A DNA stretch of 64,000 nucleotides from the NCBI GenBank assembly GCA_049997875.1, contig JBEKRC010000003.1:115687-179686 (forward strand). The letters run 5' to 3'. Source of the DNA: Minisyncoccia bacterium. GTDB taxonomy: Bacteria; Patescibacteriota; Minisyncoccia; UBA6257; 2-01-FULL-56-20. Positions 5,864-39,212 of the stretch are shown piece by piece; position 1 is the stretch's first letter, and every line of letters starts with the position of its first letter. The notes below the pieces were generated by a model. That model did not search any database, had not been told where the DNA came from, and saw only the letters and a program-made list of their open reading frames with translations. The position numbers and the translations under genes are program-made.

Positions 5864-5878
5864 GCGGTTCGGTGCGGA

Positions 5879-6346: not shown

Positions 6347-6376
6347 TGGTTTCCTAGTTACTAGTTACCAGGCCAG

Positions 6377-7127: not shown

Positions 7128-7269
7128 GGAATAACGAATACTCTTAAAAGGGACGGTGTCGTTTCCTCCGGCGGGGAAACGCACCTCGCTCTCGCCACGG
7201 CAGACGACCTAAAGGTCGTCTCAAACCGCCGTGGCTCCGAGATGCCCTTTTAAGAGTATTCGTTATTCC
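7128..7269 (+). terminator. Complex terminator-like structure. A perfect 25-bp stem (GGAATAACGAATACTCTTAAAAGGG) encloses a conserved multi-hairpin insert of about 90 nt.
   Basis: Begins immediately after tRNA-Ala and is followed by a T-rich run. The interior has GTTTCC-N8-GGAAAC and GACGACC-N4-GGTCGTC hairpins homologous to the fusA 3' element. Confidence 0.5.
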
Positions 7270-7283
7270 TTATTGTTCTCTTG

Positions 7284-7413
7284 GGGAATCAAACGAGGAA
7301 AGGGGTCGGGGAAACCTTAGGTTTCCCCGTGTCGGAAAGAAGTTGAGAACCGTGGGTTCTCAAAGCGCAGGCCGGTCTTACCGGCCGAGCAGTGAGATTC
7401 CCCTCATGTCCAC
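7284..7413 (+). ncRNA. Conserved structured element E1, a candidate ncRNA or mini integrated element. It ends with a duplicate of the tRNA-Ala 3' end.
   Basis: About 85 percent identical to 36367-36517 over the conserved blocks, with compensatory hairpin changes. The 3' end GATTCCCCTCATGTCCAC copies the tRNA-Ala T-stem plus acceptor. Confidence 0.4.
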
Positions 7414-7493
7414 GGAGAACAAGCAAGGCAGTGAGACTCCCCTTAAAAAGGGAGCCGCAGTGGCTCTCTCGTGGCAACACACTGCGGCCCAAC

Positions 7494-7790
7494 TCACGGC
7501 AACAAAAACGGCATAAAAATGCGTTCGCTACCCAGGAGTCTTTGCAGATAAAGATGGCGTAGGATCGGCGGATCGCCCACGAAGAACACTTCCACCGTCA
7601 TCTCCCCTTTTCGACTTAACTTGGTAGCACAAAGGGATTCAATCGCCCTTTCTCCTTCCTCCACCTGGAGAAGTTCGAGGGCAGTGAAGAGTTCGCGACG
7701 GAACTCAAGAGCGCTCGGCGGGATCATAATGACCACTATTTTCCCGCCGCGGGCAAGACGAAGCTCGTTTCCATTCAGTATCACGTTCAC
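7494..7790 (-). CDS. Hypothetical protein (98 aa)
   Basis: ORF only; weak resemblance to small beta-grasp proteins. Confidence 0.35.
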   Translation of the reverse strand: MNVILNGNELRLARGGKIVVIMIPPSALEFRRELFTALELLQVEEGERAIESLCATKLSRKGEMTVEVFFVGDPPILRHLYLQRLLGSERIFMPFLLP

Positions 7791-7847
7791 CTCCAGTAGA
7801 ACGATTCAAGAAAAAAACCGACTATATCATATCATAAAACAGAACCA

Positions 7848-8486
7848 TCACAACCCGAGCGGTTGGCCGGTGAAAATAAGAAAAAGAAAATTGACGAGCG
7901 GCATAAGGAGCTGGAATCCAAAGAACACGAAAATAAGGACGAGGAAAAGCCCCCAGCGTTCCAAGAAATACATCACGCGGTAAGTTGCCTGCGTTTGCGG
8001 GAGCGCGGCGAAAAGCACGCGCGAACCGTCCAGCGGCGGAATGGGAACGAGGTTGAAAATGCCGAGAAGGACGTTGATGAACACGACGACCCCAAGGAAG
8101 GAAAGAAATGCATCGGAGACAAAGGGCAAATAGCTCAATATGCGAACGAGAATCCCGAAGATCACGGCGATGAGCAAGTTTGTTCCCGGTCCCGCGAGCG
8201 CGATTTTGACCGAGCCGGTTCGCGGATTCTTAAGATTGCGTGGATCATAGGGCACCGGCTTCGCGGCGGCGAAAAAGAATGCTCCGTCGGAGGCAATGTA
8301 AAGGAAGATAGGCAGGAGAATCGAACCGAAGGGATCCAGATGCTTCAAGGGATTGAGCGTGAGGCGTCCCGCGTTCCGCGCCGTGGGATCCCCCAGCCGT
8401 TCCGCCTCATAACCGTGCGCGATCTCGTGCAGCACCGCCGAAAAAAGCAGGACGATGAATTCAAACACAACGATTGCGACGTTCAT
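7848..8486 (-). CDS. Peptidase M50 family (site-2-protease-like) membrane metalloprotease
   Basis: HEIAHG HExxH motif in a TM helix; LDG motif; polytopic membrane protein. Confidence 0.85.
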   Translation of the reverse strand: MNVAIVVFEFIVLLFSAVLHEIAHGYEAERLGDPTARNAGRLTLNPLKHLDPFGSILLPIFLYIASDGAFFFAAAKPVPYDPRNLKNPRTGSVKIALAGPGTNLLIAVIFGILVRILSYLPFVSDAFLSFLGVVVFINVLLGIFNLVPIPPLDGSRVLFAALPQTQATYRVMYFLERWGLFLVLIFVFFGFQLLMPLVNFLFLIFTGQPLGL

Positions 8487-8571
8487 TGGAATAAGTGTAC
8501 CATGCGGAAGCGAATTATTCTGGAAAATTATGAAGTGGCGTGATATGCTCTATAAAAATATTCGATAGCTT

Positions 8572-8644
8572 GCCCTCGTGGTGAAACGGATATCACAACT
8601 GCCTTCGAAGCAGTAAGTGGGGGTTCGACTCCCTCCGGGGGCGC
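8572..8644 (+). tRNA. tRNA-Arg (TCG)
   Basis: Acceptor GCCCTCG/CGGGGGC, anticodon loop CTTCGAA, T-arm GGGGGTTCGACTCCCTC. Confidence 0.8.
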
Positions 8645-8710
8645 ACTTTGGAGATTAAAAAAATATTAAAGAACCTTTGACTTTCCGGCGGGTTGCATCA
8701 CACTGTGAAC

Positions 8711-9106
8711 ATGGACAGCAACAACGAACCGGTTACGAAGGCTATGTTCATAGAAGGGATGGCGAATCTGAAAACGGAACTTAAGACGGAACTTACCGCA
8801 ACGCTGACCGCGGCGTTTACCGCGGCAATTACCGAGGCGATTGATGGCCTCGCCCGCTTGGTGAACAAGGGATTCGCGGATATTGAGGAAAGGATGGCGA
8901 CCAAAGAGGAACTGCGCGCCGTGGACGGCCGCCTCTCGCATGCCATCGGGCAGGTTGACAACCGTCTCTCGGTGGCGATTGATAAAGTTGACATGCACCT
9001 TTCGGCATACGCCACGCAGTGGAACAGGGAATTTGAAAACGTAACTGGGCGGCTTGATGAACACGATGGGCGGCTGCGGTTTTTAGAGAAACGACGGGTC
9101 GGGTAA
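8711..9106 (+). CDS. Small coiled-coil protein
   Basis: Preceded by the ATTAAAGAACCTTTGAC motif shared with the gene at 20157; heptad-rich sequence. Confidence 0.55.
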   Translation: MDSNNEPVTKAMFIEGMANLKTELKTELTATLTAAFTAAITEAIDGLARLVNKGFADIEERMATKEELRAVDGRLSHAIGQVDNRLSVAIDKVDMHLSAYATQWNREFENVTGRLDEHDGRLRFLEKRRVG

Positions 9107-9207
9107 TGGCGGCGGTGCGAAGCGCTGTGAGCGCGGCTTTGCCAACAGACCATTGTCCACAGGCGTCGCTTTGCGCCACAGCGGCTTGTTGTATAATAGA
9201 GGGAACG

Positions 9208-9690
9208 ATGAAGCTTGAGAAAAAGACGGCGGTTTTGATCATAGTGGGGGTCATAATCTTCGCGGCCATCATCCTGTATGCGTATCTCTACGGGCCATCA
9301 TGGCCGACTTCGCCGCAGGCGACCGGCCCCGCTCCCGTCCACGCCCTGCAGGGGCAGGTGGTTGCGGGTTTCCCCCAAGATCTCATCTTGGACAGCGGGG
9401 CGCAGGTGAATAACAGCTACTCCGTCAATTATTCCTCAAGTACGAACCAGTATACCGTGCAGTGGAATTCCTCAAGCGCGGTGGCACGCATCTATAACGA
9501 CTACCTCGCGTACTTCCCGACGCACGGCTGGACAGTCACGAACCGCTTTACCACGCGTCCCGACCTGCGCGGCCTGTACGCCGTAAATGCCTCGTCATCG
9601 GCCAGTGCGAATGTTACAATCGCAGTGCAGGGCGCGGGGTCCGAGGTGAGCGTGAGTTACGCGGTGACGGAGAATCCCATGGTGAAATAA
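9208..9690 (+). CDS. Membrane-anchored hypothetical protein
   Basis: TATAAT, then a GAGGGA RBS, then the ATG; N-terminal TM helix; Ser/Thr-rich ectodomain. Confidence 0.6.
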   Translation: MKLEKKTAVLIIVGVIIFAAIILYAYLYGPSWPTSPQATGPAPVHALQGQVVAGFPQDLILDSGAQVNNSYSVNYSSSTNQYTVQWNSSSAVARIYNDYLAYFPTHGWTVTNRFTTRPDLRGLYAVNASSSASANVTIAVQGAGSEVSVSYAVTENPMVK

Positions 9691-9694
9691 AAAA

Positions 9695-10819
9695 ATGAAG
9701 AAGAAAAAAAATCTCGATTGGTTTCCGGTTTTGGCGGCGCGTGTTTGCGCGCTCGCCGCGCTGGGGGTTGGCGGTGCGTTTGTGGCAATGTATCTGGCAA
9801 ACTCCCTGCCAACGCATACAGCCTTAGCTGGCACAAACAAATGTCCAGCGGGGCCCTTTTGGACACTTGACCCAGGAATCTCCGTAAGCGGTTCCTTCAG
9901 TTCAAATACGCTCACGTTTTCCGGTACCGCACAGGGAGGCGAACAGTCGTGTAACTGCGGCGATTTCAGTTACGGTACGCCGGTAACTATCGGATCGGAC
10001 CAATACACTATTACAAATTCGTCCGGCACAGTAGTGGCTCGATCAGCTTTGCCAAATTGGTCCCTTGCGCAGGGCCCTGCGAGCAGCCTATGCACCAGCG
10101 TCTCTCCCGCTAATGAAGATAGTTATAGTTTCGGGCCCGGTACGGTGAATACCTCCGGCTGGGCACCGGGCGTTTATACGCTCACCGTGACGATTGGTGA
10201 TTCCTGCGGAGGTCCATTTACAAACTCGGGCTATACATGCCCTCCACCGCCAACGGACACTTATGTTTTCACCGTGACGGGCGGCACTATCTCTGTGCTG
10301 TCGCAGAATGCCGCGGGCAATCCACTAAGCTCATCGTGGGGCTTCGTCGGCCCTCTCGGCGGCCCCTGCGAGGGCACTCCCCTTTGTTCGGGCACCTCCG
10401 GCATCTACAACAACCAGCCGCCCGGCACCTATTCCCTATCTCCCGGCAGCGCCCCTTCGGGTTACAGCGGCTATACCATTTACTTAAACAACAACTATAA
10501 CCAAGCGTGTTCTGTCACCTCCTGCGCGGGGACGCTCCAGAACGGCGGCACGTTAACTTTCACTATTAAGTGGAATCTGATAGAACCGGCCATCGCCGCG
10601 TCGTGGAACACCACATATCTTGTGCAATCCATCGCAACCACCGTGCCGGCCGGGAGCAATCTGAACATCTCCGATTACATAAGAAACATCGGGCCGACAA
10701 ATTCGTCGTTAGATTGGATTTGTAGTGTGCACGGGCCAGCGGGATGGACTGGAACGCTGAACTATGGTCTATGCCAACAAGGCCAGCCCTTGAGCGGCGG
10801 CGCGTCGCCGTTCCAGTAA
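9695..10819 (+). CDS. Secreted Cys- and Gly-rich hypothetical protein
   Basis: Signal/TM N-terminus; many Cys and Gly. Confidence 0.7.
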   Translation: MKKKKNLDWFPVLAARVCALAALGVGGAFVAMYLANSLPTHTALAGTNKCPAGPFWTLDPGISVSGSFSSNTLTFSGTAQGGEQSCNCGDFSYGTPVTIGSDQYTITNSSGTVVARSALPNWSLAQGPASSLCTSVSPANEDSYSFGPGTVNTSGWAPGVYTLTVTIGDSCGGPFTNSGYTCPPPPTDTYVFTVTGGTISVLSQNAAGNPLSSSWGFVGPLGGPCEGTPLCSGTSGIYNNQPPGTYSLSPGSAPSGYSGYTIYLNNNYNQACSVTSCAGTLQNGGTLTFTIKWNLIEPAIAASWNTTYLVQSIATTVPAGSNLNISDYIRNIGPTNSSLDWICSVHGPAGWTGTLNYGLCQQGQPLSGGASPFQ

Positions 10820-10911
10820 AAGCAAAAGGTTGCAAAAGCAAAGGGCCCCGACCAAAAGGAAGGGGCCCGAAGCTTCAATCTCAATTATCAAAGAACAGTG
10901 TGCTATCGCGG

Positions 10912-12834
10912 TTACTGCGGTGATGGCGTCCAATCTGCGAGCGCGGCCTGCGTGCAAGTTGTGGTGCCGCACATAGTCGTACCATCAGAGCCGGTTCCCG
11001 CAAAGACATAGTGCACAATGCCCTGCTGGTCCGCGTACGACGCGAGGTCGTTCCAGACGGTGACGGATCCGCCGGGCGTGTTGGTTTGGTCCGCGCGCAT
11101 CGTCCAGAGTTCCTGTGCGGGACGAGAGGTACCGGAAACGGAGATGGCGCAGGCGTCGGTCTTCGTGAGATCGGCGCTGCCAATGCGAGAGCATGACCCT
11201 GCCACCGTGAGTCCAACCTGGCTTCCCAAATTCAGGATTGAACTCATGGCAATGTTTACGCTTGAAGCGCCCGTGCCGGTGCCATTGTCTCCCCACCAGA
11301 CGTACAGAATGGTCTGCGACCAGTTGCTGGGGTTATCAGGATTGACGGCAATGGTGAAGTCCTGGTTCGTGGCGCTCCAATACGTTGAACATCCCCACAA
11401 CACCTGGCCGGTCCCGCTGTTGAACAACCGGCAATTGTAACTGTGATTCCCGGCAGCAACCTGCCCGGACATAAGCGGCGTGCCGGTGAGCGAATAAGGG
11501 CCTTCGGCCCAACCATGTATCAGGTTGCCGCCTTTTTCCCCCGTGCCGATCGTCCAGAGATGATCGGGGAACATAGCGACTCCGGTTACTGGATTTGTGA
11601 AGTTCGGGTCGTCATCATAGCCGTTCACCGCGAACGGGTCTTGTTGCATTACTCCGCTTGCGGAATTCAAAACCACTATCCAGCCGCCGCTGCTGTACCA
11701 GCCACTTTGCGGATCCTGCAAGCGGTAGTCGGAGTTCGTTCCGACATAGAGAGCGGAACCAAGGATGTTGATGGTTTTTGCTTCGGTGCGCACGCCGGGC
11801 CCGGAGGTAGGCAGTTGGAAATCGGCGAGCGCGAGAACATCGAGTGTGTTGCTCGCCAAGCCAACTTGCCAAACCATTGCGGAGCGGGTTGCGGTGCTGT
11901 TGGGATCCAATTGCTGCCAGCCCGCCGCGTAGGCAACCATGCCGTCGGCGCTAATCACTATTTGGTTGATTTGGCACGCCGTCGGCGAGTTGCTCCACTT
12001 ATCGAGCAAGTTGTGAGCGTTGTCGTAAAGTGCAAGCCCACAACTTGTTGCGGTAGCGTCTGCCATAATGCGCAACGCACCAAGAGCGGTAACCGCCACG
12101 GCCGTTGCCTGGTCGTTAACGTTCTTGCCATCCACTTGGGGAGTACGGTATGTGAGGTGGTTGAAGTTCACCACGAGCGTAGCCCCGTTCAGGCTGCAGC
12201 CGGTCACCCCGTTCGGGGCGTAGGTCCAACCCGAGCCACTGATGGTAGTGCTGCTTTGTGTTTCGCCAGTCACAGTGGTACCAGAAACGGTGGCCACCGC
12301 GGTGTTGCCGGAAACGAAGCTGCCGCCCGTGAAGCCCGTGGGCGCCGAGGCGGTGCTTGTTCCATTCACCGTAATGACGGCGGGCGTGAGCACCACCACA
12401 TTGCCTGTAGTAGGACAAGGACCAGCGCTTACCACGTACTTCACAGTCGCGGTCTGCGGGCTGTTGTCGGCGTTGGGATCAGCGACGCTGACCGTACAGG
12501 TCGACGTGCCGACGCTTGCCGGAGCAGCCACGGTAACCGTGAGCGCAATGCTGCCACCCACGGCGACACTACCAGAGGTCGGTGCCACATAGCACCAACT
12601 CTGGCCGGCGGCCACTGTCCAATTTAAGCTGGCCGTGCCGGTGTTCTCTACCATCAGGGTCTGCCCCGACGGTGCCGTTCCTCCCATAATTGCGTTGAAA
12701 GTGAGTGTCATGGGAGAAAGAACGATGTTAGGCTGGGGCAGCTGCCGAGTAGTCCCTCCCCCGCCGCAACTGGTCAAGGTCAGCCCTAGGAGGCTGACCA
12801 GAACCACCAATAAGCACTTCTTTTCTGTATTCAT
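10912..12834 (-). CDS. Surface lipoprotein with Ig-like (BACON/Big_2-like) domains
   Basis: LTLTSC lipobox; domains with the pattern NTGTASLNW...W...P.SG also found in the 20758 giant protein. Confidence 0.75.
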   Translation of the reverse strand: MNTEKKCLLVVLVSLLGLTLTSCGGGGTTRQLPQPNIVLSPMTLTFNAIMGGTAPSGQTLMVENTGTASLNWTVAAGQSWCYVAPTSGSVAVGGSIALTVTVAAPASVGTSTCTVSVADPNADNSPQTATVKYVVSAGPCPTTGNVVVLTPAVITVNGTSTASAPTGFTGGSFVSGNTAVATVSGTTVTGETQSSTTISGSGWTYAPNGVTGCSLNGATLVVNFNHLTYRTPQVDGKNVNDQATAVAVTALGALRIMADATATSCGLALYDNAHNLLDKWSNSPTACQINQIVISADGMVAYAAGWQQLDPNSTATRSAMVWQVGLASNTLDVLALADFQLPTSGPGVRTEAKTINILGSALYVGTNSDYRLQDPQSGWYSSGGWIVVLNSASGVMQQDPFAVNGYDDDPNFTNPVTGVAMFPDHLWTIGTGEKGGNLIHGWAEGPYSLTGTPLMSGQVAAGNHSYNCRLFNSGTGQVLWGCSTYWSATNQDFTIAVNPDNPSNWSQTILYVWWGDNGTGTGASSVNIAMSSILNLGSQVGLTVAGSCSRIGSADLTKTDACAISVSGTSRPAQELWTMRADQTNTPGGSVTVWNDLASYADQQGIVHYVFAGTGSDGTTMCGTTTCTQAALADWTPSPQ

Positions 12835-20757: not shown

Positions 20758-23700
20758 ATGTACTCAATGGATAAAAGGCATTTTGTTCTCATTGCCGCCG
20801 CTCTCGTAGTGCTAGGCTTCGTTTTGATTTCTCCTCGTTCTGCCTTGACTCAAAGTTCTCAAGGGGATGGCAGCATTTCTCTTTCCAACGTCGTGAGCGG
20901 CACTTATACGATCGTGGTCACGGGGCAGGACCCCTCCGGCAGCTCCGTCGGCACGACAACGCTAACGGTGACCGTGACCACGCCGCCCTCCTGCCCCACC
21001 TCAAGCAATACCGTCACCCTCACGCCTTCCACGATCACGGTCGGCGGGACGAGCATCGCCTCGGCTCCCGCGGGCTTCACGGGCGGCAGCTTCTCTTCTA
21101 ATAACTCCTCGATAGCCAGCTCCCTCCAGGTGAACCCCGCCCCCACGGCCCACATCGTCCTTGCCCCCGCAAGCTTTTCCTTCTCTGGCGTCTCGGGCGG
21201 GGCGACGCCCGCGGGCAAGACCATGGCTATAGAGAACACCGGCACGGCGACCCTGACCTCCTGGACGGCGACCATCGCATCCTCCACAAGCTGGTGCCAC
21301 GTGAGCCCGGCATCGGGGAACAACGTTGCGGCGGGCGGTTCCCAGAACGTCACGGTGTCGGTGGATGCGCCCACGAACACCGGCGCCTTCTCCTGCACTA
21401 TCACCGTCGCCGGCAATGCCGACAACAGCCCGCAGAATGCGACCTACACGGTGACGGCGCCCAGCATCTCTCTTTCCCCCCAAAGCTTCTCCTTCTCGGG
21501 CGTCTCGGGCGGGGCGACGCCTGCCGGCCAGACCATGGCCATTACGAACACCGGCACGGCGACCCTGAACTGGACGGCGTCAGGGGTGCCCGGCAAGACG
21601 GGCACCTGGTGCCACATAAGCGATGCCTCGGGCACCGTTCCGGTGGGCAAAAACTGGCAGGAGAGCGAGCTCGTCACGGTGACGGTGGACGCGCCAACGA
21701 ACATAGGGACCTTCACCGACTGCGGCATCCGCATCACCGACTCCCATGCCGACAACAGCCCGCAGGATGCCACGATCACCTACACGGTGACGGCACCCCT
21801 CCCTCCCTCCTGTCCCACCTCAAGCAACGCCGTCACCCTCACGCCTGCGACCATCACGGTCGGCGGGACGAGCATCGCCTCCGCTCCCACGAGCTGGACG
21901 GGCGGCAGCTTCCTTTCTAGTAGCTCCTCGATAGCCAGCGTTTCCGGCACCACCGTGACCGGCGTCGCCGCGGGCAGCGCCACAATCAGCGGATCGGGAT
22001 GGAAGGCCCCCAACGGGGCGACGGGCTGCAGCTTGAGCGGGGCCGCCCTCACGGTGACGGGGCAGCCCACGCTTGTCATCTCCCCGCCATCGACGTCCAC
22101 CACGGTGGGAGGCACGGCCTCGTTCACGGCCTACTATGATCCTGACGGTTCCGGGCCACAGCCACAGCAGAACGTGACGGCGAGCGCAAGTTGGTCCTCC
22201 TCTTCTTCCACGATCGCGAGCTCGCAGGGAAGCGGCCAGTTCAAGGGGGTGAAATCGGGCACGGCAACCGTGAAGGCTATCTACGGAGGCCTTACGGCGA
22301 CAGCCATCCTGAATGTCAATGCCGTGGGCACGCCGGACTTCTCCCTCACGGTTTCCCCCCCGAGCCAGTCCATCATGCAGGGCACAAACGGCACCTACAT
22401 CGTGACGGCGTCCAGCTCGGGTGGGTTCAGCGGTTCCATCAATCTTTCCGCCACCAATCTTCCGTCAGGCGTGACCGCGACATTCTCCCCCGCCAGCATC
22501 ACGCCGGGCAATTCCTCCAATCTCACCCTGACCGTGGGCAGCGGCGTGCTCCCGGGCGCGTATACCTTCTACGTCAAGGGCACGTCGGGGTCGCTGATCC
22601 ACAGCTACCCGGTGGGGCTCACGGTCACCGCCGCCCCCACAGCCCATATCGTCCTTGTCCCCACAAGCTTCTCCTTCTCGGGCGTCTCGGGCGGGGCGAC
22701 GCCTGCCGGCCAGACCATGGCCATCAAGAACACCGGCACGGCGACCCTGAACTGGACGGCGTCAACCATATATGGCTGGGACCAGTTGAACCCAACCTCG
22801 GGGAACGTTACGGCGGGCGGTTCAAAGAACGTCGCGGTGACGGTGAGCCCGCCTTCGAACGTCGGGATCTTCCCCGATACTATCACCGTCAGCGGCAATG
22901 CCGACAACAGCCCGCAGCAAGCCTCCGTGACGTACACAGTGACAAGTTCCTCGCCGCCCACCTCGCCCTCGCCCACTCTTTCCCTATCCATCGCTCCGGA
23001 GGAGATCGCGCTCGGCCAATCAGCGTCCCTCGTCTGGTCAACGGCGAATGCGACTGCCTGCACCGCCTCCGGCAACGACCCGACTGAATGGTCGGGGTCG
23101 CAAGCGATAGGACAGAACCAGCAGGCTGTCATGTCGCCTTCCCCAGTGGGGACCTATACCTACACCCTCACCTGCACCGGCCCTGGCGGGAGTACGGCGC
23201 AGTCGGCGACCCTCGTGGTAGACCCCGGTTACGTCGGCGGCCCCACGCCATTTGGTTGCACATGTACGGAAGTTTCAGACCTTAGCGAAGTCACCTGTCC
23301 TCCCAATTGTCCCTATCCGTCGCTCGCCGCCTGCCAAGCGGCATGTTCAGCCTCCAATCCTCCCGGTCCCTCCAATCGGCTTACTATCTCCCCCGCAAGT
23401 CTATATCTTTCTGTTGGCGGCCAGAGCGGCAAATTCACGTTGACGTACAATGGCATCGACGTAACTACCGCCGCCACCTGGACCGCCGGCCAACACACTA
23501 CGGTATCAAATGGTGTGGTAACGGCAGTCTCATACGCCGTGTGGGACCCTATCATGGCGAACTACCAAGGAAACTGGACGGAGGGTATTGTTTACATATA
23601 TCAGTCGCCATCCGGTCCGTCTGGGCCGTCCGGCCCGTCCGGGCCCACATGCCCGGGTGGAAATGGCTGCCCGCCTCCGCCCTCCTGCACCTTCACCGCC

Positions 23701-23988
23701 AGTCCTTCGGAGATCATCGCGCCGCAATCAGCAAACCTCATCTATAATTGCAGCCATGTGACCACCTGCAGCATCACGGGATCCGACGGTTCAACCTACC
23801 CTGTTTCGGTGAGTCCCTCCGACCGTGCGAACGGCACCCGGGCGATCGCGCCAAGCGCGGACACCTCCTACACCTTGAGTTGCTACGGCGAGGAGGGATC
23901 TCCGTACAGCAACGCGGCCTACGATTCGGTCACGACCATTCAAATCAAAGTCAACAACAATCCCCATCTGCACGAGGTCAATCCGTAA
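20758..23988 (+). CDS. Giant secreted surface protein (1076 aa) with repeated Ig-like (Big_2/BACON-like) domains and a PSGPSGPSGPSGP linker
   Basis: Signal peptide; repeated modules of about 100 aa; Cys-rich C-terminal domains. Confidence 0.8.
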   Translation: MYSMDKRHFVLIAAALVVLGFVLISPRSALTQSSQGDGSISLSNVVSGTYTIVVTGQDPSGSSVGTTTLTVTVTTPPSCPTSSNTVTLTPSTITVGGTSIASAPAGFTGGSFSSNNSSIASSLQVNPAPTAHIVLAPASFSFSGVSGGATPAGKTMAIENTGTATLTSWTATIASSTSWCHVSPASGNNVAAGGSQNVTVSVDAPTNTGAFSCTITVAGNADNSPQNATYTVTAPSISLSPQSFSFSGVSGGATPAGQTMAITNTGTATLNWTASGVPGKTGTWCHISDASGTVPVGKNWQESELVTVTVDAPTNIGTFTDCGIRITDSHADNSPQDATITYTVTAPLPPSCPTSSNAVTLTPATITVGGTSIASAPTSWTGGSFLSSSSSIASVSGTTVTGVAAGSATISGSGWKAPNGATGCSLSGAALTVTGQPTLVISPPSTSTTVGGTASFTAYYDPDGSGPQPQQNVTASASWSSSSSTIASSQGSGQFKGVKSGTATVKAIYGGLTATAILNVNAVGTPDFSLTVSPPSQSIMQGTNGTYIVTASSSGGFSGSINLSATNLPSGVTATFSPASITPGNSSNLTLTVGSGVLPGAYTFYVKGTSGSLIHSYPVGLTVTAAPTAHIVLVPTSFSFSGVSGGATPAGQTMAIKNTGTATLNWTASTIYGWDQLNPTSGNVTAGGSKNVAVTVSPPSNVGIFPDTITVSGNADNSPQQASVTYTVTSSSPPTSPSPTLSLSIAPEEIALGQSASLVWSTANATACTASGNDPTEWSGSQAIGQNQQAVMSPSPVGTYTYTLTCTGPGGSTAQSATLVVDPGYVGGPTPFGCTCTEVSDLSEVTCPPNCPYPSLAACQAACSASNPPGPSNRLTISPASLYLSVGGQSGKFTLTYNGIDVTTAATWTAGQHTTVSNGVVTAVSYAVWDPIMANYQGNWTEGIVYIYQSPSGPSGPSGPSGPTCPGGNGCPPPPSCTFTASPSEIIAPQSANLIYNCSHVTTCSITGSDGSTYPVSVSPSDRANGTRAIAPSADTSYTLSCYGEEGSPYSNAAYDSVTTIQIKVNNNPHLHEVNP

Positions 23989-23999
23989 ACGGTGCGTTA

Positions 24000-26879
24000 A
24001 TGGATTTTTGGAGGAAAAATCGGGGCCAGTCGCTTATTGAGGCCATCATCGCGGTTGCCGTCGGCGCGGCATTTTTCATCGCCGGCGCGGGGATCATCGC
24101 GCCCGCCCTCAAGACGAGCAAGCAAACGCGCGTCATCCAAACGCAGACGGAGCTCGCAAAGGAACTCTTGGACGACGCAAAAGTATGGGCCACGGCGAAC
24201 TGGAATAATCTCCTCGCGCTCGCCACTACCTCGGCAAATCAATATCATCTTCTGACCGTGCAATCGCCATACTCCCCGGCAACGGGCACCGAGACGGTGG
24301 CCATCGGAGCCCCCACGAACGGCCTCGTCGGCTGGTGGACATTTGACGAGGGAACGGGATCAACGACGTATGATTCCTCGGGGAACAATAATAATGGGAC
24401 GTGGTACGGGGCGGCATCGGGTACCTCCGGCTACTACTCCGCAGGCAAGGTGGGACCATGGGCGGGGTACTTCAATGGGAGCAATGACTATCTCCAAACA
24501 CCGAATCTTTCAGCTATTAATTCTAGTACCCAACCATTTTCCGTAGCAGCCTGGTTCAATGCCAGTGCTGCGGGTGTAATTGTCGATGAAACTGGTCAGA
24601 CGAGCATAAATACTGGCTGGCATGATAGTTGGATAGAACTTCTATCAAGCGGAAGTGTTGGAGTAAGAATATGGAACTGTACATCCACAACAGCTGGGAC
24701 CGCAAACCTTAATGTATGGAATCACGTAGTACTTACATATGATGGTAGCAATCTCCATGGCTACTTGAATGGAGTAGCAAATGGCTCTGTGGCGTGTGCC
24801 AGATCTAGCCCGGGAGCTAGCGGTCATGGGGAATATCTTAATTTAGGTGGAAACGATTCGACTAATCTTGGCAGCGGTGCTTGGTTCAGTGGAATAATAG
24901 ACGATGTCCACGTCTACAACCGTGCCCTCTCGGCGGCGGAGGTTCAGGCACTCTATAGCAGCTCCGCGACGGCTTACCAACGCTATTTCTATTTGAGCGA
25001 CGCGTATCGCACCGCGGCGGGGAACCTCACCACGACCGCGAGCGGAAATTATTATGATCCCTCCGCAAAGCTCGTGACCGCGGTCACGACCAACACAAGC
25101 ACCAATTCTCTCGCATACGCCACGACGACCATGAGCGAATATCTCACCCGCTATGCCAATAATATTTATGATCAAAGCGATTGGTCGGGCGGCTCCGGGC
25201 AAGACACTCCCGTCACGGTCGCGGGCAACACCTTCGCGACATCCACCAATATAGTCACCAATACCGCGGGGCAGCTCACGCTATCAACGGCACCTAGCGG
25301 CCTCGTCGGCTGGTGGACCTTTGACGAGGGGACCGGCACGACGGCGTACGATTTAAGCGGAAACGGGAACAACGGAACGTTTAGTTCACCCGCGCCCACT
25401 TGGACGACCGGGAAGGTAGGGAGCGGCGCTTTGAGTTTCAATGGTACGAGTAGTTATGTAAGCGTACCTTCGGGTCCCACGCTTACCTATAATCCGATTA
25501 CGTTCGCGGTATGGGTTAATGAACCAGCAAGCACACTCGGAACTTTTATGATCGGGAAATCGACGTACGGAGGATTTTTGCGGGATTACGGGAACGGTCA
25601 ATACGAATGGGATATATACTCAGGGAGCGAGCATAATATCTTTGCGACGATCCCGTCTTATAATCAATGGCATTTTGTTGTCGGCACCTACGACGGGAGC
25701 GTCCAAAAATTGTATGTTGACGGCACCCTCGCGACATCGACAAATTTATCCGTCACTCCCCAATCGACTACCGACTTCGGCATAGGCGCATGCATATTTT
25801 GCGGTCCTGGTCAATTTACACATGGGTTGCTCGACGACGCCCGCATTTATAACCGCGCCCTTTCGGCTACCGAGGTTCAGATGCTCTACAACGCGAGCGG
25901 TACGCTGGATTCGGCAACCTTTGGAGCGACCGCGGGAGACCAATTGAACTCGGTTACGTGGCTGGGAAGTACGAGCACAAGCAACGGGACGGTAAAATTC
26001 CAATTCGCGGTGAGCAATACGAGCGCCTCAAGCACGCTGCAGAGTTTTCTGGGGCCCGACGGGACCTCGCTCTCCTATTTCGGCGGGACGAACGGAGCCA
26101 CCGAGGGCACTCCCGTGAACCTCTGTTCCACTTCCACTTCCAACGGCTACTCCCTTTTCAGCGGCTACCCATACTTCCGGTATCGCATTACCCTCTTCTC
26201 AAACGCGTCAACCCCCCCCATGAGCGGCCTGGTCGGCTGGTGGACATTTGACGAGGGGACGAGCACGACAGCCTATGATTCCAGCGGGAATGGGAACAAT
26301 GGGAGCTGGTATGGGACGGCTGGGGGAACGAGTGGATACTACTCCGCGGGCAAGGTGGGACAGTGGGCGGGGCATTTCGACGGAACCGACAATTATATAC
26401 TCATGGCTAGTAGCAGCATACTTTCGAGTTTTTCTGTTGCGGCATGGATAAACCCCGCCTCTCTTACTAGTCGGTCTGAGATTCTTGGTTACGCCGACAT
26501 CTTTTTTAATATACAAAATGGAAAAATCTGTCAGTATGTCGCGGGAGTAAACTCAAGCTATTTGTGTGGAAATACATCAGTTCCTACTAGTAGTTGGTCG
26601 TTTGCTGTTGCGACATGGGACGGTAGCACCGAGAAAATATTTTATAATGGTTCACCGGATGGCTCAGTAGTTCTATCTGGGACTCCGGCCAGCTGGAATA
26701 CCCCCAATATTGGTGTTTGTGGCTCTGGATGTGGATTCTTAGGTTATTTCCCAGGCCTCATCGACGATGTCCGCATCTACAACCGCGCCCTCTCCCCTAC
26801 CGAGGTTCAGGCACTCTATAGCAGCTATGGCAGTGGCAGTCCGACGGTAAATCAGGTTATCATAAACTGGAGTCCGTGA
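24000..26879 (+). CDS. Giant type IV pilin-like protein with three LamG (concanavalin-like) domains
   Basis: N-terminus MDFWRKNRGQSLIEAIIAV is a prepilin signal. GLVGWWTFDEGTG...YDSSGNGNNG is repeated three times. Confidence 0.8.
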   Translation: MDFWRKNRGQSLIEAIIAVAVGAAFFIAGAGIIAPALKTSKQTRVIQTQTELAKELLDDAKVWATANWNNLLALATTSANQYHLLTVQSPYSPATGTETVAIGAPTNGLVGWWTFDEGTGSTTYDSSGNNNNGTWYGAASGTSGYYSAGKVGPWAGYFNGSNDYLQTPNLSAINSSTQPFSVAAWFNASAAGVIVDETGQTSINTGWHDSWIELLSSGSVGVRIWNCTSTTAGTANLNVWNHVVLTYDGSNLHGYLNGVANGSVACARSSPGASGHGEYLNLGGNDSTNLGSGAWFSGIIDDVHVYNRALSAAEVQALYSSSATAYQRYFYLSDAYRTAAGNLTTTASGNYYDPSAKLVTAVTTNTSTNSLAYATTTMSEYLTRYANNIYDQSDWSGGSGQDTPVTVAGNTFATSTNIVTNTAGQLTLSTAPSGLVGWWTFDEGTGTTAYDLSGNGNNGTFSSPAPTWTTGKVGSGALSFNGTSSYVSVPSGPTLTYNPITFAVWVNEPASTLGTFMIGKSTYGGFLRDYGNGQYEWDIYSGSEHNIFATIPSYNQWHFVVGTYDGSVQKLYVDGTLATSTNLSVTPQSTTDFGIGACIFCGPGQFTHGLLDDARIYNRALSATEVQMLYNASGTLDSATFGATAGDQLNSVTWLGSTSTSNGTVKFQFAVSNTSASSTLQSFLGPDGTSLSYFGGTNGATEGTPVNLCSTSTSNGYSLFSGYPYFRYRITLFSNASTPPMSGLVGWWTFDEGTSTTAYDSSGNGNNGSWYGTAGGTSGYYSAGKVGQWAGHFDGTDNYILMASSSILSSFSVAAWINPASLTSRSEILGYADIFFNIQNGKICQYVAGVNSSYLCGNTSVPTSSWSFAVATWDGSTEKIFYNGSPDGSVVLSGTPASWNTPNIGVCGSGCGFLGYFPGLIDDVRIYNRALSPTEVQALYSSYGSGSPTVNQVIINWSP

Positions 26880-26881: not shown

Positions 26882-26953
26882 GCCCCCATAACTTAAAGGC
26901 TAAAGTAGCTGCCTCTTAAGCAGTAAATCCAGGTTCGAGTCCTGGTGGGGGCA
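26882..26953 (+). tRNA. tRNA-Lys (CTT)
   Basis: Acceptor GCCCCCA/TGGGGGC, anticodon loop CTCTTAA, T-arm CCAGGTTCGAGTCCTGG. Confidence 0.85.
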
Positions 26954-27077
26954 CAAAACACCTATCCACAGTCCTACCGCTCTGTCCAGGCGGCTCTGCG
27001 TGGTATAATTTCTGAAAAGGAAGGGATTAATCAAAGGCCGGAAAATAGCAGAAAATAAAAACTTAGCAATAAAAATT

Positions 27078-28892
27078 ATGAAAAAAACAATAGTTTTCGT
27101 GTCGGTGCTTGCCTTGTTCGGAAGCGGTCTTGGTCTTGCTGCCGCCCAGGCGGCGAGTTCTTCTACTCAGACACTCCTCACTGATGGCGTCAAGATTACC
27201 TTCCCCAGCGGAGGATATGAAATCTGGCTACGCAATTTAGGAGGAAATGCATCGCTACAGATGGTAGATGCCGTAACGGGGCAACCTGTGCCGTCTGGGG
27301 AGTGGGACATCAATCTTGTCAGGCCCGCTAACTACGTCCCTGTTCCGGCCCTGAATCAGTACCAGACCGCAGTGGACCTTATAGTAAGCTCTAATGATAA
27401 TAGCGGAAATTTCTCGCCTTTGGGATGGAATGCATCTCTTAGTGACAATGGCGTGGTCCCCGGACCATGGGTGGCGACCGGGATAGAGCCAATGGGGGTG
27501 AGCACTGGATCCGGCACTGCGTCCTGGCCTGCCGGCTACACGAGCGGAGAGCGGATCTCGGCAACTTCCAACGTCCTCTCGAACCCCATTCCCCCTGCCC
27601 CGTATCACGTGACCATCTCTCCCACGACCCTCAATTACTCTTTCATCCCCTCCAGCGGGCTGTCTGTCTCCATAACAGATCCGTCCGGCAACCGGCCGCC
27701 CGATGGTGTCTATGGGGTGTGGTTTGGACAGCCAGGCGGTACGGATGAATGGCAGATAGCGGTATCGAACGGTGAGGTACCGGTTTGGAACTGCTGGCGT
27801 TCTGATGGTACGGGGTTCATAACTTATCCGGCTGGGGAGTGGGCAACGGGCGACAACATGGCTTGTCAGGGCGGCGCCCCCAATTATGGCTGGGGAGCGC
27901 TTAGTCCGGGCACCTACCAAGTTGGTTTCGTAACGCTCCCGAGTAATTCGTCAACTACGGGAAACTGGCCGGGCGGAGCAACGGTGCCGGCAACCTCCAA
28001 TAGTTTTCAGGTAGCCGCGACCGCGGCCAGCTCCGGCGGCAGCGGCTCCGGCACTGGCGGCACCTCCTCGCCGACCTCGGGAGCGACGAAGCTTCAGCAG
28101 ACCATGGACACGCTCTCGCAAAAGCTCACCCAGCTCTCGCAAACCAACGCGGCGCTCTACACGCAAGCCCTGGCGATCCTAAACCAGCTCATAAGTCTCT
28201 TAGGGGGCACCGTCGTGTGCTCCGGCGGGAGCTGTGGCGGCCCCGTGTCAATCACCACGCCCCCCCCAAGCGCTTCGTTCAGCTACACCTGGAACACGGA
28301 CTTGCAGTACGGCATGTACGGCAATCCTGACGTAAGTGCGCTCCAGCAAGCGCTCACCCTACAGGGAGTATATAGCGGCCCCGTGAGCGGCAACTTCTTG
28401 AGCGCGACGGAGGACGCCGTGGTGCTCTTCCAGCAAAAGTATGGCATCTCGGGGACGGGATACGTTGGGGTGCTCACGCGCGCCAAGTTGAACGCGCTGT
28501 ACGGCGGCGGTCCATCAGCCACCACTCCCACTCCGCTTCCCATTTCCGAGCCCACCGGCAGCGCTAGCGTTGCGTCTCCGCTTTCCGTCTCTTGCTATGG
28601 CACCGCTTCTGTGAGTGGGACGAGTGCGGTGACGAATGTGGTATGGACGGCAACGGTAGCGGGCGGCACTCCGCCGTATACCTACTACTGGTTCAGGGGA
28701 ACGAGTGCGGACGGAACCATTCCACCGGGGACGTCTAACTACGCTACCAGCAACTTAGGCAATGGAGGGGGCGGCCACTCGGTCACGGCGAATTACGGCC
28801 CCTGGGCCACGTCCCAGACCGCGTATGTCCAGGTAAAAGACGCCTCTTCAAATCAAGCGACGTCAAGCTGCACGGTGGCCATGCCTCAATAG
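27078..28892 (+). CDS. Secreted protein with a peptidoglycan-binding (PG_binding_1) domain
   Basis: Signal peptide; VSALQQALTLQGVYSGPVSGNFLSATEDAVVLFQQKYG matches the PGB fold. Confidence 0.75.
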   Translation: MKKTIVFVSVLALFGSGLGLAAAQAASSSTQTLLTDGVKITFPSGGYEIWLRNLGGNASLQMVDAVTGQPVPSGEWDINLVRPANYVPVPALNQYQTAVDLIVSSNDNSGNFSPLGWNASLSDNGVVPGPWVATGIEPMGVSTGSGTASWPAGYTSGERISATSNVLSNPIPPAPYHVTISPTTLNYSFIPSSGLSVSITDPSGNRPPDGVYGVWFGQPGGTDEWQIAVSNGEVPVWNCWRSDGTGFITYPAGEWATGDNMACQGGAPNYGWGALSPGTYQVGFVTLPSNSSTTGNWPGGATVPATSNSFQVAATAASSGGSGSGTGGTSSPTSGATKLQQTMDTLSQKLTQLSQTNAALYTQALAILNQLISLLGGTVVCSGGSCGGPVSITTPPPSASFSYTWNTDLQYGMYGNPDVSALQQALTLQGVYSGPVSGNFLSATEDAVVLFQQKYGISGTGYVGVLTRAKLNALYGGGPSATTPTPLPISEPTGSASVASPLSVSCYGTASVSGTSAVTNVVWTATVAGGTPPYTYYWFRGTSADGTIPPGTSNYATSNLGNGGGGHSVTANYGPWATSQTAYVQVKDASSNQATSSCTVAMPQ

Positions 28893-31134: not shown

Positions 31135-32205
31135 TTACTGCCACCACTCAACGATCACAATGCCGGTGCCGCCGGTGCCGCCGCTCGCGCCAGCGGTGGT
31201 GGTGGCGGTACCGGCGCCGCCGCCGCCGCCACCAGCGGCGGTGCCGCCGGTGCCGCCGGCGGTGCTGGCAGGACCGCCGACCTTGGCACCGGTGCCGCCA
31301 GCACCGCCAGTGCCGCTACCATAGCCGCCATAGCCACCACCGCCACCGCCACCACCGCTGGCACCGCCGGCACCACCACCGTTAGGGGCACCACCAGCAC
31401 CGCCATTGCCGAAAACACCGCCACCGCCACCGCCAGCGCCAGCGACGTTGGTGGCGGCTGTGGCGGCGGCGCCGGCGTTGTAGCCGCCGCCACCACCGCC
31501 ACCGTAGCCATAGATGCCGTTGCCGTTACCCCCGCCAGCGCCACCACTACCGGCGACACCGCCAGCACCGCCACCGCTGATGACGCCGGCGCCGCCGCCG
31601 GCACCGCCGCCATAGCCGCCACCGGTGCCGCCGCTTAGGTTGGCGGAACCAGCGCTGCCAGCACCGCCACCACCGCCACCGCTAGCCACAACAAGCGTCC
31701 CAAAAGAAGAAGCAGCACCTGAACCGCCGGCGCCACCGGCACCGCCACCGCCACCGCCGGCGCCGACCGTAACCGAAACACTACTACTGGTTGCCGCAAC
31801 AGGATAACGCACATAACACACGCCGCCACCACCACCGCCGCCGGGACTACCTGAATATGCAGCTGCGCCGTTGCCACCGCCGCCGCCACCGCCGCCACCA
31901 CCGCATACCGTTACCCACACCGTAGACGTCGCTAAAGAAGTCGTCCACGTGCCACTCGCAGTGAAGATCTGTATCTGCGGCGTTTTCCCGCCGCTTCCCG
32001 CGAGAATGGCGGTATCAACATACGCCTTCGTTGCCGCATCACTGGATGCCGTCGTCGTCGTAAGCCCCGTGATGCGGGCGGGAATCGTGATCACGCCGCT
32101 CACGGAGGCGTTCACCTCGTTCAGGCGGCTATAAAGGTAAAGCGCCGCCGCGAATGCGACAATCGCAAACATTGCAACGATGAGAATCTTGTACTTCGTT
32201 TCCAT
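31135..32205 (-). CDS. Gly-rich membrane-anchored protein (poly-GGxGG low complexity)
   Basis: N-terminal TM METKYKILIVAMF; more than 50 percent Gly/Ala with GGAGG repeats. Confidence 0.65.
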   Translation of the reverse strand: METKYKILIVAMFAIVAFAAALYLYSRLNEVNASVSGVITIPARITGLTTTTASSDAATKAYVDTAILAGSGGKTPQIQIFTASGTWTTSLATSTVWVTVCGGGGGGGGGGNGAAAYSGSPGGGGGGGVCYVRYPVAATSSSVSVTVGAGGGGGGAGGAGGSGAASSFGTLVVASGGGGGGAGSAGSANLSGGTGGGYGGGAGGGAGVISGGGAGGVAGSGGAGGGNGNGIYGYGGGGGGGYNAGAAATAATNVAGAGGGGGGVFGNGGAGGAPNGGGAGGASGGGGGGGGYGGYGSGTGGAGGTGAKVGGPASTAGGTGGTAAGGGGGGAGTATTTAGASGGTGGTGIVIVEWWQ

Positions 32206-32228
32206 TGCTGTGCAGTATTCGTTCTTCT

Positions 32229-32951
32229 TTAGTGTAGCATCCCCAGAAATGAGTCCCCTGTGGATAATCGAGGCACCGCGGGCCCCACCGCGACGTCCAC
32301 CTTCCCCTTGAAATCGCCGGCGCTTGCGAGGCCGAACCACGTGCTGTCAATGCTCCCCGCCGGATTGTTTCCCAGGACAAGATAGGCGTCGGCCAGAATG
32401 ATGCCGCCCTGATCGCCCACATAGAGCGCGAGCATCCGATCCGCGGCATCCGACACGAGGTAGGTTTCCCCTTGCGCGTTCACAAGCGGCGCGCCGTTTA
32501 TGAGGATGTGCCACCGGGAGCCGCTTTTTTGGAACGCGAGCGTATCTCCCGGCACTCCCATCACGCTTTTCACAAGATCCTCCGGCCCGCCGTAATCGTA
32601 ATCAACGATATCCCCGCGCGCCACCGCGTGGCAGGCGTAATAATTTTGGAGCACCGTGACGCGCTCGCCGTCGGAGAGAATTCCCTCCATGGAAGTCCCG
32701 CGCACGGTCACAGTCTCTTCCCGCACCGTGCAATTCGCAGTTTGCGGCGACGCGCTTGGCAGGGCCGTCGCGGCGGCCGACGCCGCACTCGCCGCCGCGG
32801 CCGAAAACAGCTCGTCTCTGCCGTTTTGAAGCGCGAATGAATTTCTGAAAACGACCAAGGTAACGAGCGCGAGCGCCGCGCCTACCGCGGCGCCGAGCAT
32901 GCTACATTTCGCTGCTGATGTAAGAAATCCGCGCATGAAAAATCTGCGCAT
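32229..32951 (-). CDS. lepB: Signal peptidase I (S26)
   Basis: GTSMEGIL (Ser box), RGDIVDY, KSVMGVPGDTL and GNNPAGSIDS boxes. Confidence 0.8.
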   Translation of the reverse strand: MRRFFMRGFLTSAAKCSMLGAAVGAALALVTLVVFRNSFALQNGRDELFSAAAASAASAAATALPSASPQTANCTVREETVTVRGTSMEGILSDGERVTVLQNYYACHAVARGDIVDYDYGGPEDLVKSVMGVPGDTLAFQKSGSRWHILINGAPLVNAQGETYLVSDAADRMLALYVGDQGGIILADAYLVLGNNPAGSIDSTWFGLASAGDFKGKVDVAVGPAVPRLSTGDSFLGMLH

Positions 32952-38732: not shown

Positions 38733-39212
38733 TCAATAGCTCACGGCCCCGGACGAAGCAACGGAAATAGTGGAGGAAAGCGACGCGGTGCCCCGCGAGT
38801 AGAGCCCAACGCTCGTTGCAACCGAAGCGGCGCCGGTGACCTGCGAAAACGTGATGTTGATCGCCGCGCCGGAAGCGAGCGTCGCGGTAACATAGGCGAC
38901 GGACGACGGCAAAGGGTAATACCCCACGATCGCGGACTTAGCGTAGGTGGAGGAGGCGAAAAGGGCGTAGAACGGCGTGGTCGCTGTCGCATTCTCAAGA
39001 TGCACGCCCCACGAAACGCCTTGTTCCTGCGCCATTGAATCGCTTTGCGCTTCGCGGAGCAGCGCCGCGATATCTTCCGTGGCGCCATTCAGATCCGCCT
39101 TGTTGCGGCTTCCAAATAAATTGGCGGTGCTGAGCAGGGCAATGAGAGCGACGAAGAGCGCAACCGTGACGAGAAGCTCTATGAGCGTAAACCCCGCACG
39201 AAGGGTTTTCAT
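38733..39212 (-). CDS. Type IV pilin / pseudopilin
   Basis: MKTLRAGFTLIELLVTVAL is a canonical prepilin cleavage/methylation motif. Confidence 0.85.
   Translation of the reverse strand: MKTLRAGFTLIELLVTVALFVALIALLSTANLFGSRNKADLNGATEDIAALLREAQSDSMAQEQGVSWGVHLENATATTPFYALFASSTYAKSAIVGYYPLPSSVAYVTATLASGAAINITFSQVTGAASVATSVGLYSRGTASLSSTISVASSGAVSY

Follow-up and report, generated by a model that had tools for sequence, protein, structure and literature searches.

What is the giant LamG protein that a Minisyncoccia bacterium encodes directly behind a gene for an Ig-repeat protein: a subunit of a type IV pilus (T4P), or a surface protein that shares only the N-terminus with pilins? The two genes, here called ORF1 and ORF2 (open reading frames 1 and 2), lie within a stretch of 64,000 nt from contig JBEKRC010000003.1 (assembly GCA_049997875.1, forward strand positions 115,687 to 179,686), which is referred to as the window throughout. 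A first reading of the letters alone (the original prediction) had described ORF1 as an Ig-like repeat protein and ORF2 as a LamG-domain pilin, and had proposed that the pair is an adhesion module. We find that ORF2 very likely encodes a genuine type IV pilin-like protein. We consider it fairly probable that it is a modular minor type IV pilin of this Patescibacteria bacterium, which presents its LamG domains as an adhesin at the pilus tip.

The mechanical reading frame of ORF2 opens at a TTG at position 23748, within the 3' end of ORF1. The ATG at 24000, 11 nt past the ORF1 stop codon, is taken as the real start because three independently called homologues begin with MDF[WY]RKNRGQSLIEA and because a class III signal needs a short leader. 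The resulting protein of 959 aa and the 11-nt gap are as originally predicted (about 960 aa), and the tRNA-Lys(ctt) reported 2 nt after the ORF2 stop codon is indeed located there (Table 1). Since an identical ORF2 protein is encoded on five public contigs (NCBI, JGI, Logan, ENA), the gene is not an assembly artefact. The protein corresponds to MGC9599347.1, which is named 'LamG domain-containing protein [Minisyncoccia bacterium]' and is not annotated as a pilin.

The N-terminus of ORF2 reads MDFWRKNRG/QSLIEA (the slash marks the predicted cleavage site, here and below). It consists of a basic leader of 9 residues, a predicted site for the prepilin peptidase PilD between G9 and Q10, and E14 at position +5; the QSLIE14 segment continues with AIIAVAVGAAFFIAGAGIIAP, a hydrophobic stretch of about 21 residues. 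The residues G(-1), S(+2), L(+3), I(+4) and E(+5) are spaced as in the canonical G/FTLIE pilins of the same genome. Upon six-frame translation, only three class-III-like N-termini were detected in the window, those of ORF2, of a canonical small pilin (38733..39212) and of a pilin-like protein (2347..3111).

An exhaustive HMMER search with ORF2 residues 1-104 as query retrieved 352 cluster representatives at E<=1e-3 (151 at E<=1e-10). The match is always N-terminal in the target proteins, which vary in length from 79 to 1533 aa. These sequences are defined in this analysis as the Patescibacteria G/QSLIE minor pilin family, for which no curated model exists. Nearly all of the family sequences inspected (140 of 151) contain the motif G-x4-E, and 129 of these 140 have Gln at +1 (G/QS[LI]xE). 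In an alignment of 30 members, Gly(-1) (G9), Glu(+5) (E14), Gly(+13), W68 and S89-P90 are invariant (30 of 30), and Pro(+26) is conserved in at least 90%. ORF2 carries all of the family invariants, and its YQRYFY...DWSGG part (YxRYFY...DWSGG in the family) resumes after the first LamG domain. The claim of a genuine prepilin signal, G/QSLIEA, is thus borne out by the canonical spacing and by the invariance of G(-1) and E(+5).

Of the signatures for class III signal peptides (IPR012902, PF07963, TIGR02532), the Pfam profile N_methyl (PF07963) reaches 18.2 bits in ORF2 itself and so stays under its cut-off of 21.2 bits. This marginal score is due to Gln, rather than Phe or Met, at +1. Among the relatives, two score above the cut-off (P0121, 21.3 bits; the member from locus L021, 22.5 bits; both described below) and P0127 scores 20.4 bits. 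As judged from the aligned sequences, Gln(+1) is a hallmark of the family and not a defect. Automatic names assigned by JGI to some family members are PulG or PilV, at the level of clusters of orthologous groups (COG) only; neither ORF2 nor P0121 matches TIGR01707 (gspI) or TIGR02523 (PilV) at E <= 0.01.

The architecture of ORF2 became evident from a comparison with P0121, an orthologue of 345 aa without any LamG domain which is encoded on the sister chromosome OY970382.1 (L002). ORF2 residues 1-107, 324-431, 632-737 and 944-959 align collinearly with P0121, with 81-91% identity. In its AlphaFold2 (AF2) model, which has a mean predicted local distance difference test (pLDDT) score of 79, a helix (residues 5-66) and a beta-sheet (strands within 82-169) form the lollipop of a pilin; a low-confidence region (about 172-222), which holds the conserved DWSGG, and a C-terminal beta-sandwich (225-344) follow. 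The fold of the model appears closest to GspI-type tip pseudopilins of the type II secretion system (T2SS). A search with the pilin-core profile against PDB sequences gave nothing meaningful (best E-value 0.78).

Into this scaffold, the LamG domains appear to be inserted. Laminin_G_3 (PF13385) matches ORF2 in three stretches (E 2.4e-66, 223 bits, with a cut-off of 27.6 bits), and every LamG domain opens with GLVGWWTFDEGT, at residues 108, 436 and 741, in agreement with the three domains and the recurring segment originally described. LamG1 maps to a turn of the pilin sheet, between P0121 strands 98-105 and 108-123. For full-length ORF2, the model scores only modestly (pLDDT 64.7, predicted TM-score 0.39), so that the insertion topology rests mainly on the P0121 alignment; the helix is reproduced in this model, and the strands at 324-383, after LamG1, are well scored. 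From the alignment and the models we infer that the LamG domains are insertions in a 345-aa pilin-plus-sandwich scaffold and not a C-terminal string. Foldseek matches of the LamG domains include the arabinan-binding domain of AbnA, trans-sialidase lectin domains, neurexin LNS domains and neurotoxin Hc; the match to 5hon has a TM-score of 0.69 at 24% identity and is of the LamG/concanavalin A (ConA)-like type.

The three LamG domains of ORF2 are 35-45% identical to one another and each is closer to LamG domains of other proteins, so that a simple tandem duplication was rejected as their origin. LamG1 is only 44% identical to LamG1 of P0001, an 80%-identical orthologue from a sister genome, whereas every other segment of the two proteins is 88-95% identical. 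Higher values are obtained with the LamG domain of the family pilin P0025 (62%) and with that of the operon-type member P0167 (58%). Taken together, these identities suggest that LamG1 is a cassette exchanged by recombination. We also counted LamG domains in 156 family representatives with a local LamG hidden Markov model (HMM). There are 119 without LamG, 32 with one, 3 with two and 2 with three domains. The only representatives with three are ORF2 and its orthologue P0001, and one of the two-LamG entries is a truncated copy of ORF2.

The genomic context of the relatives was analysed with one genome per species and an 8-sequence family alignment as query, which yielded 24 loci. These are from Patescibacteria-type metagenome-assembled genomes (among them Liptonbacteria, Paceibacteria, Parcubacteria, Minisyncoccia, Brennerbacteria and Jorgensenbacteria), apart from one contig labelled Acidobacteriota (L023) and some records without a lineage name. 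About 17 of the 24 loci share a recurrent pilus array around the G/QSLIE gene. The array begins with one or more major pilins (G/FTLIELLVV), followed by proteins of about 190, 570 and 401 aa, a small minor pilin and the G/QSLIE gene, after which proteins of about 295, 150 and 505 aa are encoded. At locus L021, Pfam identifies the 571-aa protein as PilB (T2SSE and MshEN), the 401-aa protein as PilC (T2SSF) and the small flanking proteins as N_methyl pilins. The G/QSLIE member of this locus (431 aa) passes both Pfam thresholds, for N_methyl and for a single Laminin_G_3 domain (residues 160-318), which is located at the LamG1 site. On the evidence of gene content, a single-LamG G/QSLIE pilin is a regular part of Patescibacteria pilus operons.

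The conserved genes past the G/QSLIE pilin (L021 8160-11102, L016 6763-9695, equivalents in about 15 loci) lack Pfam matches. The protein of about 295 aa is secreted and has the motif WAWND.IGWI...TGYASSS.G.ISLDC, the one of about 150 aa starts with RRAQAALS..FLIGGI, and the one of about 505 aa has a PilM-like N-terminal motif (GGLEISDTALRF). Genes for proteins of about 259 aa upstream of the operon major pilins were considered as PilD candidates and ruled out, as they are pseudouridine synthases according to Pfam.

Pilus machinery is also encoded in the genome of ORF2 itself. The left end of the window contains the right end of a type IV pilus cluster, and ENA contig k141_992949 (L026), which matches window positions 1..11843 with 0 mismatches, runs 9.2 kb further left into it. 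The search for a prepilin peptidase that had been suggested as a check of the original prediction led to PilD on this contig, which is 100% identical to the left end of the window. With PilD present there and with a spacing that matches pilins of the same genome, neither wrong spacing nor a lack of the peptidase speaks against a functional prepilin motif. One of the minor pilins on this contig, with 177 aa, has the signal G/QSLLE and is weakly PilV-like (14382-14915, about 2.5-3.1 kb left of window position 1). It shows 29% identity over 86 residues to the N-terminal module of ORF2. As this is a second Gln(+1) pilin, the genome has both a small operon copy and a giant orphan copy. The pilin-like protein of 254 aa at 2347..3111 has no Pfam match, and one gene caller starts it 18 residues later, which drops the signal. 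The minus-strand genes at 31135-37498 (306, 510 and 400 aa, then an S26 peptidase) were considered as remnant of a vacated pilus operon; this was rejected, as BLASTP against the operon proteins of the 24 loci gave no match at 1e-5.

According to the reading that we prefer, the class III signal peptide would insert ORF2 in the membrane and PilD would cut after Gly9, leaving Gln as the new N-terminus. The GspI/PilV-like module would then join the minor-pilin priming complex and end at the pilus tip, where the three LamG domains, which are ConA-like lectin domains, and the C-terminal beta-sandwich would be displayed. The target of these domains would be a ligand, most probably a glycan, on the surface of a host cell or substratum. 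Among close relatives, LamG domains would come and go or be swapped, which is what a determinant of specificity should show. ORF1 would be a co-oriented, Sec-exported Ig-repeat surface protein, the link of which to the pilin is only syntenic. The original view of ORF2 as a candidate pilus-tip adhesin is in keeping with the GspI-like modelled core fold, with the PilB-PilC-minor pilin operons of the relatives and with characterised pilins with lectin modules (PMC9934059, PMC11623550).

Several observations weigh against this reading. Besides the sub-threshold N_methyl score and the modest full-length model, no NCBIfam pilin model matches ORF2, and Gln at +1 is atypical. A distance of about 21 kb separates ORF2 from the pilus cluster, and it shares no operon with machinery genes. 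The cluster already holds its own small G/QSLLE PilV-like pilin, and neither the window nor k141_992949 was found to encode the assembly ATPase PilB. Among the 120 best full-length matches of ORF2, 116 are multi-LamG proteins with ordinary N-terminal anchors. LamG domains also bind proteins, and Patescibacteria have thousands of LamG-containing surface proteins that are not pilins and carry ordinary anchors; for these reasons the ligand class is a guess.

The strongest competitor draws on the same observations. ORF2 might be a membrane-anchored surface lectin or adhesin which never enters a filament, its pilin-like N-terminus acting only as signal-anchor, with or without cleavage. It would then function as do the numerous multi-LamG surface proteins of Patescibacteria. 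The N-terminal anchors of its best matches, its position outside the pilus operon, the N_methyl score and its size of about 95 kDa, which is very bulky for a pilus subunit, would all fit. However, an anchor alone would not need a conserved pilin module of about 100 residues, and this module is conserved together with the invariant G(-1) and E(+5) across 352 representatives. In addition, relatives are encoded inside PilB-PilC-minor pilin operons, the modelled fold is GspI-like, PilD is present in the genome, and there are precedents for the assembly of bulky modular pilins at tips (PMC8179133, PMC9934059). We thus consider a mere surface lectin unlikely.

Other explanations involve ORF1. It had been described as a secreted protein of 1076 aa with repeated Ig-like modules and a linker, and the coordinates, the signal, the Pfam matches and the PSGPSGPSGPSGP linker agree with this. 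The signal is of the Sec type. DUF1573 (36 bits, cut-off 26.1) and BACON_2 (34.6 bits, cut-off 25) are above their gathering thresholds, while Big_2 (21.6 bits) is slightly under its cut-off of 22.8 bits. Internal repeats were identified by self-comparison after the protein had been cut into pieces. Database matches cover at most 36% of ORF1 and represent generic BACON, DUF1573 or Ig repeats from many phyla. Neither a specific family nor a pilus-related domain or feature was found among the Pfam and database matches, and the exact ORF1 sequence was not found in the protein collection searched. The only orthologues are those of the two sister genomes, with 570 aa in L001 and 805 aa in L002. In these, the signal and N-terminal domain and a C-terminal domain of about 100 residues (with the end NNNPxLxExNP) are kept, while the middle is reshuffled.

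The ORF1 orthologue and the pilin gene are on the same strand in all three sister genomes, separated by 11 nt (window), 12 nt (L001) and 3 nt (L002). The upstream neighbours differ between these genomes, while the pair and a downstream RecG persist, and tRNA-Lys follows the pilin gene in the window and in L001. ORF1 and ORF2 are probably co-transcribed and perhaps have a role in common; promoter and terminator scans of 20100-27200 gave background level, which is no evidence either way. The pairing is absent from the other 21 of the 24 loci, where a small minor pilin or an unrelated gene lies upstream. Since it is kept only in three closely related genomes, a functional link between ORF1 and ORF2, for which gene order is the argument, is unproven. 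For the proposed adhesion module, the synteny in these three genomes is the only argument, and ORF1 has no specific family.

Another interpretation is that ORF1 and ORF2 constitute a two-component device, in which the tip pilin carries or secretes ORF1 by means of its LamG or sandwich domains and the pair sets the specificity of attachment. There is a precedent in enterotoxigenic Escherichia coli (ETEC), where CofB presents CofJ (PMC8179133). Conserved spacing and orientation in spite of differing upstream neighbours, the Sec-type signal of ORF1 and its conserved termini around a reshuffled middle are in favour of such a device. However, the restriction of the pairing to close relatives and the lack of specific homologues or a pilus-related domain in ORF1 argue against it, as does the fact that ORF1 length and LamG count are uncorrelated (1076 aa with three, 570 aa with three and 805 aa with no LamG). 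We consider this quite doubtful.

It is very improbable that ORF2 belongs to a competence (DNA-uptake) or secretion-type pseudopilus, with LamG domains that would bind cell-wall or extracellular polymers: the fold is nearest to T2SS GspI pseudopilins, the minor pilins of the cluster on k141_992949 have weak ComGD/ComGE/GspH matches and DNA uptake has been discussed as a function of T4P in Patescibacteria (PMC11623550), but the ATPase of the cluster is of the PilT family (retraction), which is typical of true type IVa pili, long major pilins and a PilB containing an MshEN domain are found in the operons of relatives, and a precedent for a LamG-bearing competence pilin was not found in the literature examined.

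As a probable tip-displayed modular minor pilin, ORF2 is a variation within a known theme. Modular pilins are an established class, in which N_methyl combined with PF13385 is among the 15 most frequent architectures; several of the proteins chosen to represent these architectures are from candidate phyla (PMC8179133). In the design described for the class, the extra module is grafted C-terminally via a short linker (PMC8179133). ORF2 resembles these proteins in combining a pilin module with a module that is not T4P-specific, namely three PF13385 domains. It has both signatures of the N_methyl-PF13385 architecture, yet N_methyl is just under the cut-off, and three LamG copies are rare (2 of 156). 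Unlike a grafted module, two of the LamG domains (LamG1 and LamG3) split scaffold beta-hairpins, with LamG2 placed between scaffold domains, which is nearer to the insertion found in GspK. The nested-insertion design, the three LamG copies, the Gln(+1) family signature and the site out of the operon, next to an Ig-repeat gene, are what distinguishes ORF2.

GspK has an alpha-domain inserted in the pilin sheet (PMC8179133), and ORF2 also has a large domain within this sheet; the T2SS tip set used for comparison comprises GspI/XcpV/EpsI and GspK (PDB 5bw0, 2ret, 3ci0). The inserts differ, being lectin-type jelly rolls in ORF2, and GspK is without Glu5, which ORF2 keeps. The likeness to GspI does not extend to a significant match of ORF2 to the gspI or PilV NCBIfam models.

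PilC of Streptococcus sanguinis is a pilin with a ConA-like lectin module that binds sialylated glycans and glycosaminoglycans, and it has been modelled at the pilus tip together with the GspI-like PilA (PMC9934059). It is a minor pilin with a proposed place in a tip complex, and like ORF2 it combines a class III signal and pilin module with a lectin module of the ConA-like/LamG superfamily. In contrast to ORF2, with three LamG domains (two of them nested) and an additional beta-sandwich, it has one C-terminal lectin module on a very short pilin moiety. No sequence relation between the two is detectable outside the LamG fold, and ORF2 differs further by Gln at +1, by organism and by envelope. 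Within the same superphylum, PilX1 and PilX2 of Saccharibacteria are lectin-like minor pilins which have been proposed as adhesins, and hosts are not bound efficiently without PilX2 (PMC11623550). Compared by description, the proteins from Nanosynbacter lyticus TM7x are large minor pilins and proposed tip adhesins whose accessory module is a jelly-roll (L-type-lectin-like) or otherwise lectin-like, which resembles the LamG domains of ORF2. Their signal peptides are likewise non-canonical and were not recognised by SignalP as PilD substrates. However, they are encoded within pilus loci and have one C-terminal accessory domain, while ORF2 is an out-of-operon protein with a triple LamG. The haloarchaeal Tat-fimbria subunit TafC (NF052521; PMC11821415) also has LamG-type repeats and is filament-associated, but it is Tat-exported, archaeal and not a type IV pilin. 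An assignment of ORF2 to the TafC family was rejected, as it scores 114.6 bits against a cut-off of 410 bits, with the LamG parts only.

Patescibacteria presumably live attached to other microbes; for the few that have been cultivated, the attachment organelle with the best support is the type IV pilus (PMC11623550). The G/QSLIE family takes lectin modules at defined loop positions, and versions with zero and with three LamG domains as well as an exchanged cassette are encountered here. These forms are candidate determinants of host or surface specificity in uncultivated lineages, and they provide a natural series for the accommodation of bulky modules at a pilus tip. Gln(+1) keeps family members at or under the N_methyl threshold, so they are annotated only as 'LamG domain-containing protein'; for the same reason, censuses of modular pilins are expected to undercount the family.

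A more speculative view, which we think is unlikely to be correct in full, is that an episymbiont uses the ORF1-ORF2 pair as a cassette for host recognition that evolves rapidly, with a GspI-like scaffold that holds nested and swappable LamG domains, a reshuffled Ig partner, and Gln(+1) as mark of a distinct N-terminal chemistry. If this were true, the pair would functionally resemble phage receptor-binding proteins, given relatives with zero to three LamG domains and an exchanged LamG1, and the Gln(+1) chemistry, e.g. pyroglutamate or N-methyl-Gln, would characterise a Patescibacteria-specific tip pilin.

Table 1. Positions of ORF1, ORF2 and pilus-related features. Positions refer to the window unless contig k141_992949 is named; predicted cleavage sites are marked by a slash.
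Feature	Position	Strand	Description
ORF1	20758..23988	+	1076 aa, Ig-like repeat protein, secreted or membrane-anchored
ORF1 N-terminal signal/transmembrane segment			residues 1-35
ORF1 BACON_2/DUF1573-like module 1	21124-21453		residues 123-232
ORF1 BACON_2/DUF1573-like module 2	21466-21798		residues 237-347
ORF1 Big_2-like module	~22054-22317		
ORF1 BACON_2/DUF1573-like module 3	22618-22941		residues 621-728
ORF1 repeated C-terminal module	22981-23193 and 23689-23901		residues 742-812 and 978-1048
ORF1 Cys-rich stretch	~23239-23367		
ORF1 (PSG)n linker	23602-23646		PSGPSGPSGPSGP at residues 951-963 (nt ~23607-23645)
ORF2	24000..26879	+	959 aa, three LamG domains and pilin-like N-terminus
ORF2 pilin module, part A	24000..24320	+	residues 1-107: leader, cleavage site, alpha1 helix, first beta-strands
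ORF2 LamG1	24321..24968	+	residues 108-323, within beta-hairpin of pilin sheet
ORF2 pilin module, part B	24969..25292	+	residues 324-431: YQRYFYLSDAYR strand, remaining beta-strands, conserved DWSGG extension
ORF2 LamG2	25293..25892	+	residues 432-631, between pilin module and C-terminal sandwich
ORF2 C-terminal beta-sandwich, part A	25893..26210	+	residues 632-737
ORF2 LamG3	26211..26828	+	residues 738-943, before last sandwich strand
ORF2 last strand of C-terminal sandwich and stop codon	26829..26879	+	GSGSPTVNQVIINWSP
tRNA-Lys(ctt)	26882..26954	+	2 nt past ORF2 stop codon
Canonical small pilin	38733..39212	-	159 aa, MKTLRAG/FTLIELLV; N_methyl 24 bits (above cut-off), GspH/ComGD-like
Right end of type IV pilus cluster	1..3111	-	PilC start runs off the window at nt 1
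PilT-family ATPase	767/770..1843	-	358 aa, TIGR01420 426 bits; also on k141_992949
Pilin-like protein	2347..3111	-	254 aa, MNRKG/FGVVELVVGIVFGMIIVL, KG/FGVVELVV; just upstream of PilT-family ATPase
PilC	k141_992949, beyond window		403 aa
Major pilin	k141_992949, beyond window		G/FTLIE
PilD	k141_992949, 12950-13786		278 aa, A24_N_bact (PF06750) and Peptidase_A24 (PF01478); ~1.1-1.9 kb outside window
Minor pilins	k141_992949, beyond window		197 aa (G/FTLIE), 177 aa (G/QSLLE), 172 aa, 133 aa

Some further features were seen around the pair and elsewhere in the window. Directly after tRNA-Lys, a large predicted surface protein of 604 aa with a PG_binding_1 domain is encoded (27078..28892, plus strand), and this peptidoglycan-binding protein is conserved in L001. 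Directly after RecG, L001 contains a region (19974-22311) with a reverse transcriptase (RVT_1), bAvd and a 246-aa protein, which looks like a diversity-generating retroelement; a pair of template and variable repeats was not found near the reverse transcriptase. At the same place in the window (31135..32340, minus strand), reverse transcriptase and Avd are lacking, and a 401-aa protein is encoded that is 85% identical to the L001 246-aa protein (residues 46-113).

Additional large predicted surface proteins in the window are a 640-aa protein with BACON_2 (10912..12834) and a 551-aa protein with two Lamin Tail Domains (45716..47371), both on the minus strand. A sortase (57395..58063) adjoins another 551-aa protein (59477..61132) with Ice_binding-like and SpaA/SdrD_B prealbumin-like domains, again on the minus strand; this pair (57395..61132) may represent a sortase-anchored surface protein or a pilus-like system that is independent of the type IV pilus. 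Finally, a single ORF of 519 aa (42098..43657, minus strand) codes for a ribulose-phosphate 3-epimerase apparently fused to the N-terminal, thiamine pyrophosphate-binding half of transketolase, and the C-terminal half of transketolase is a separate gene (41043..42035) that follows this fusion ORF.

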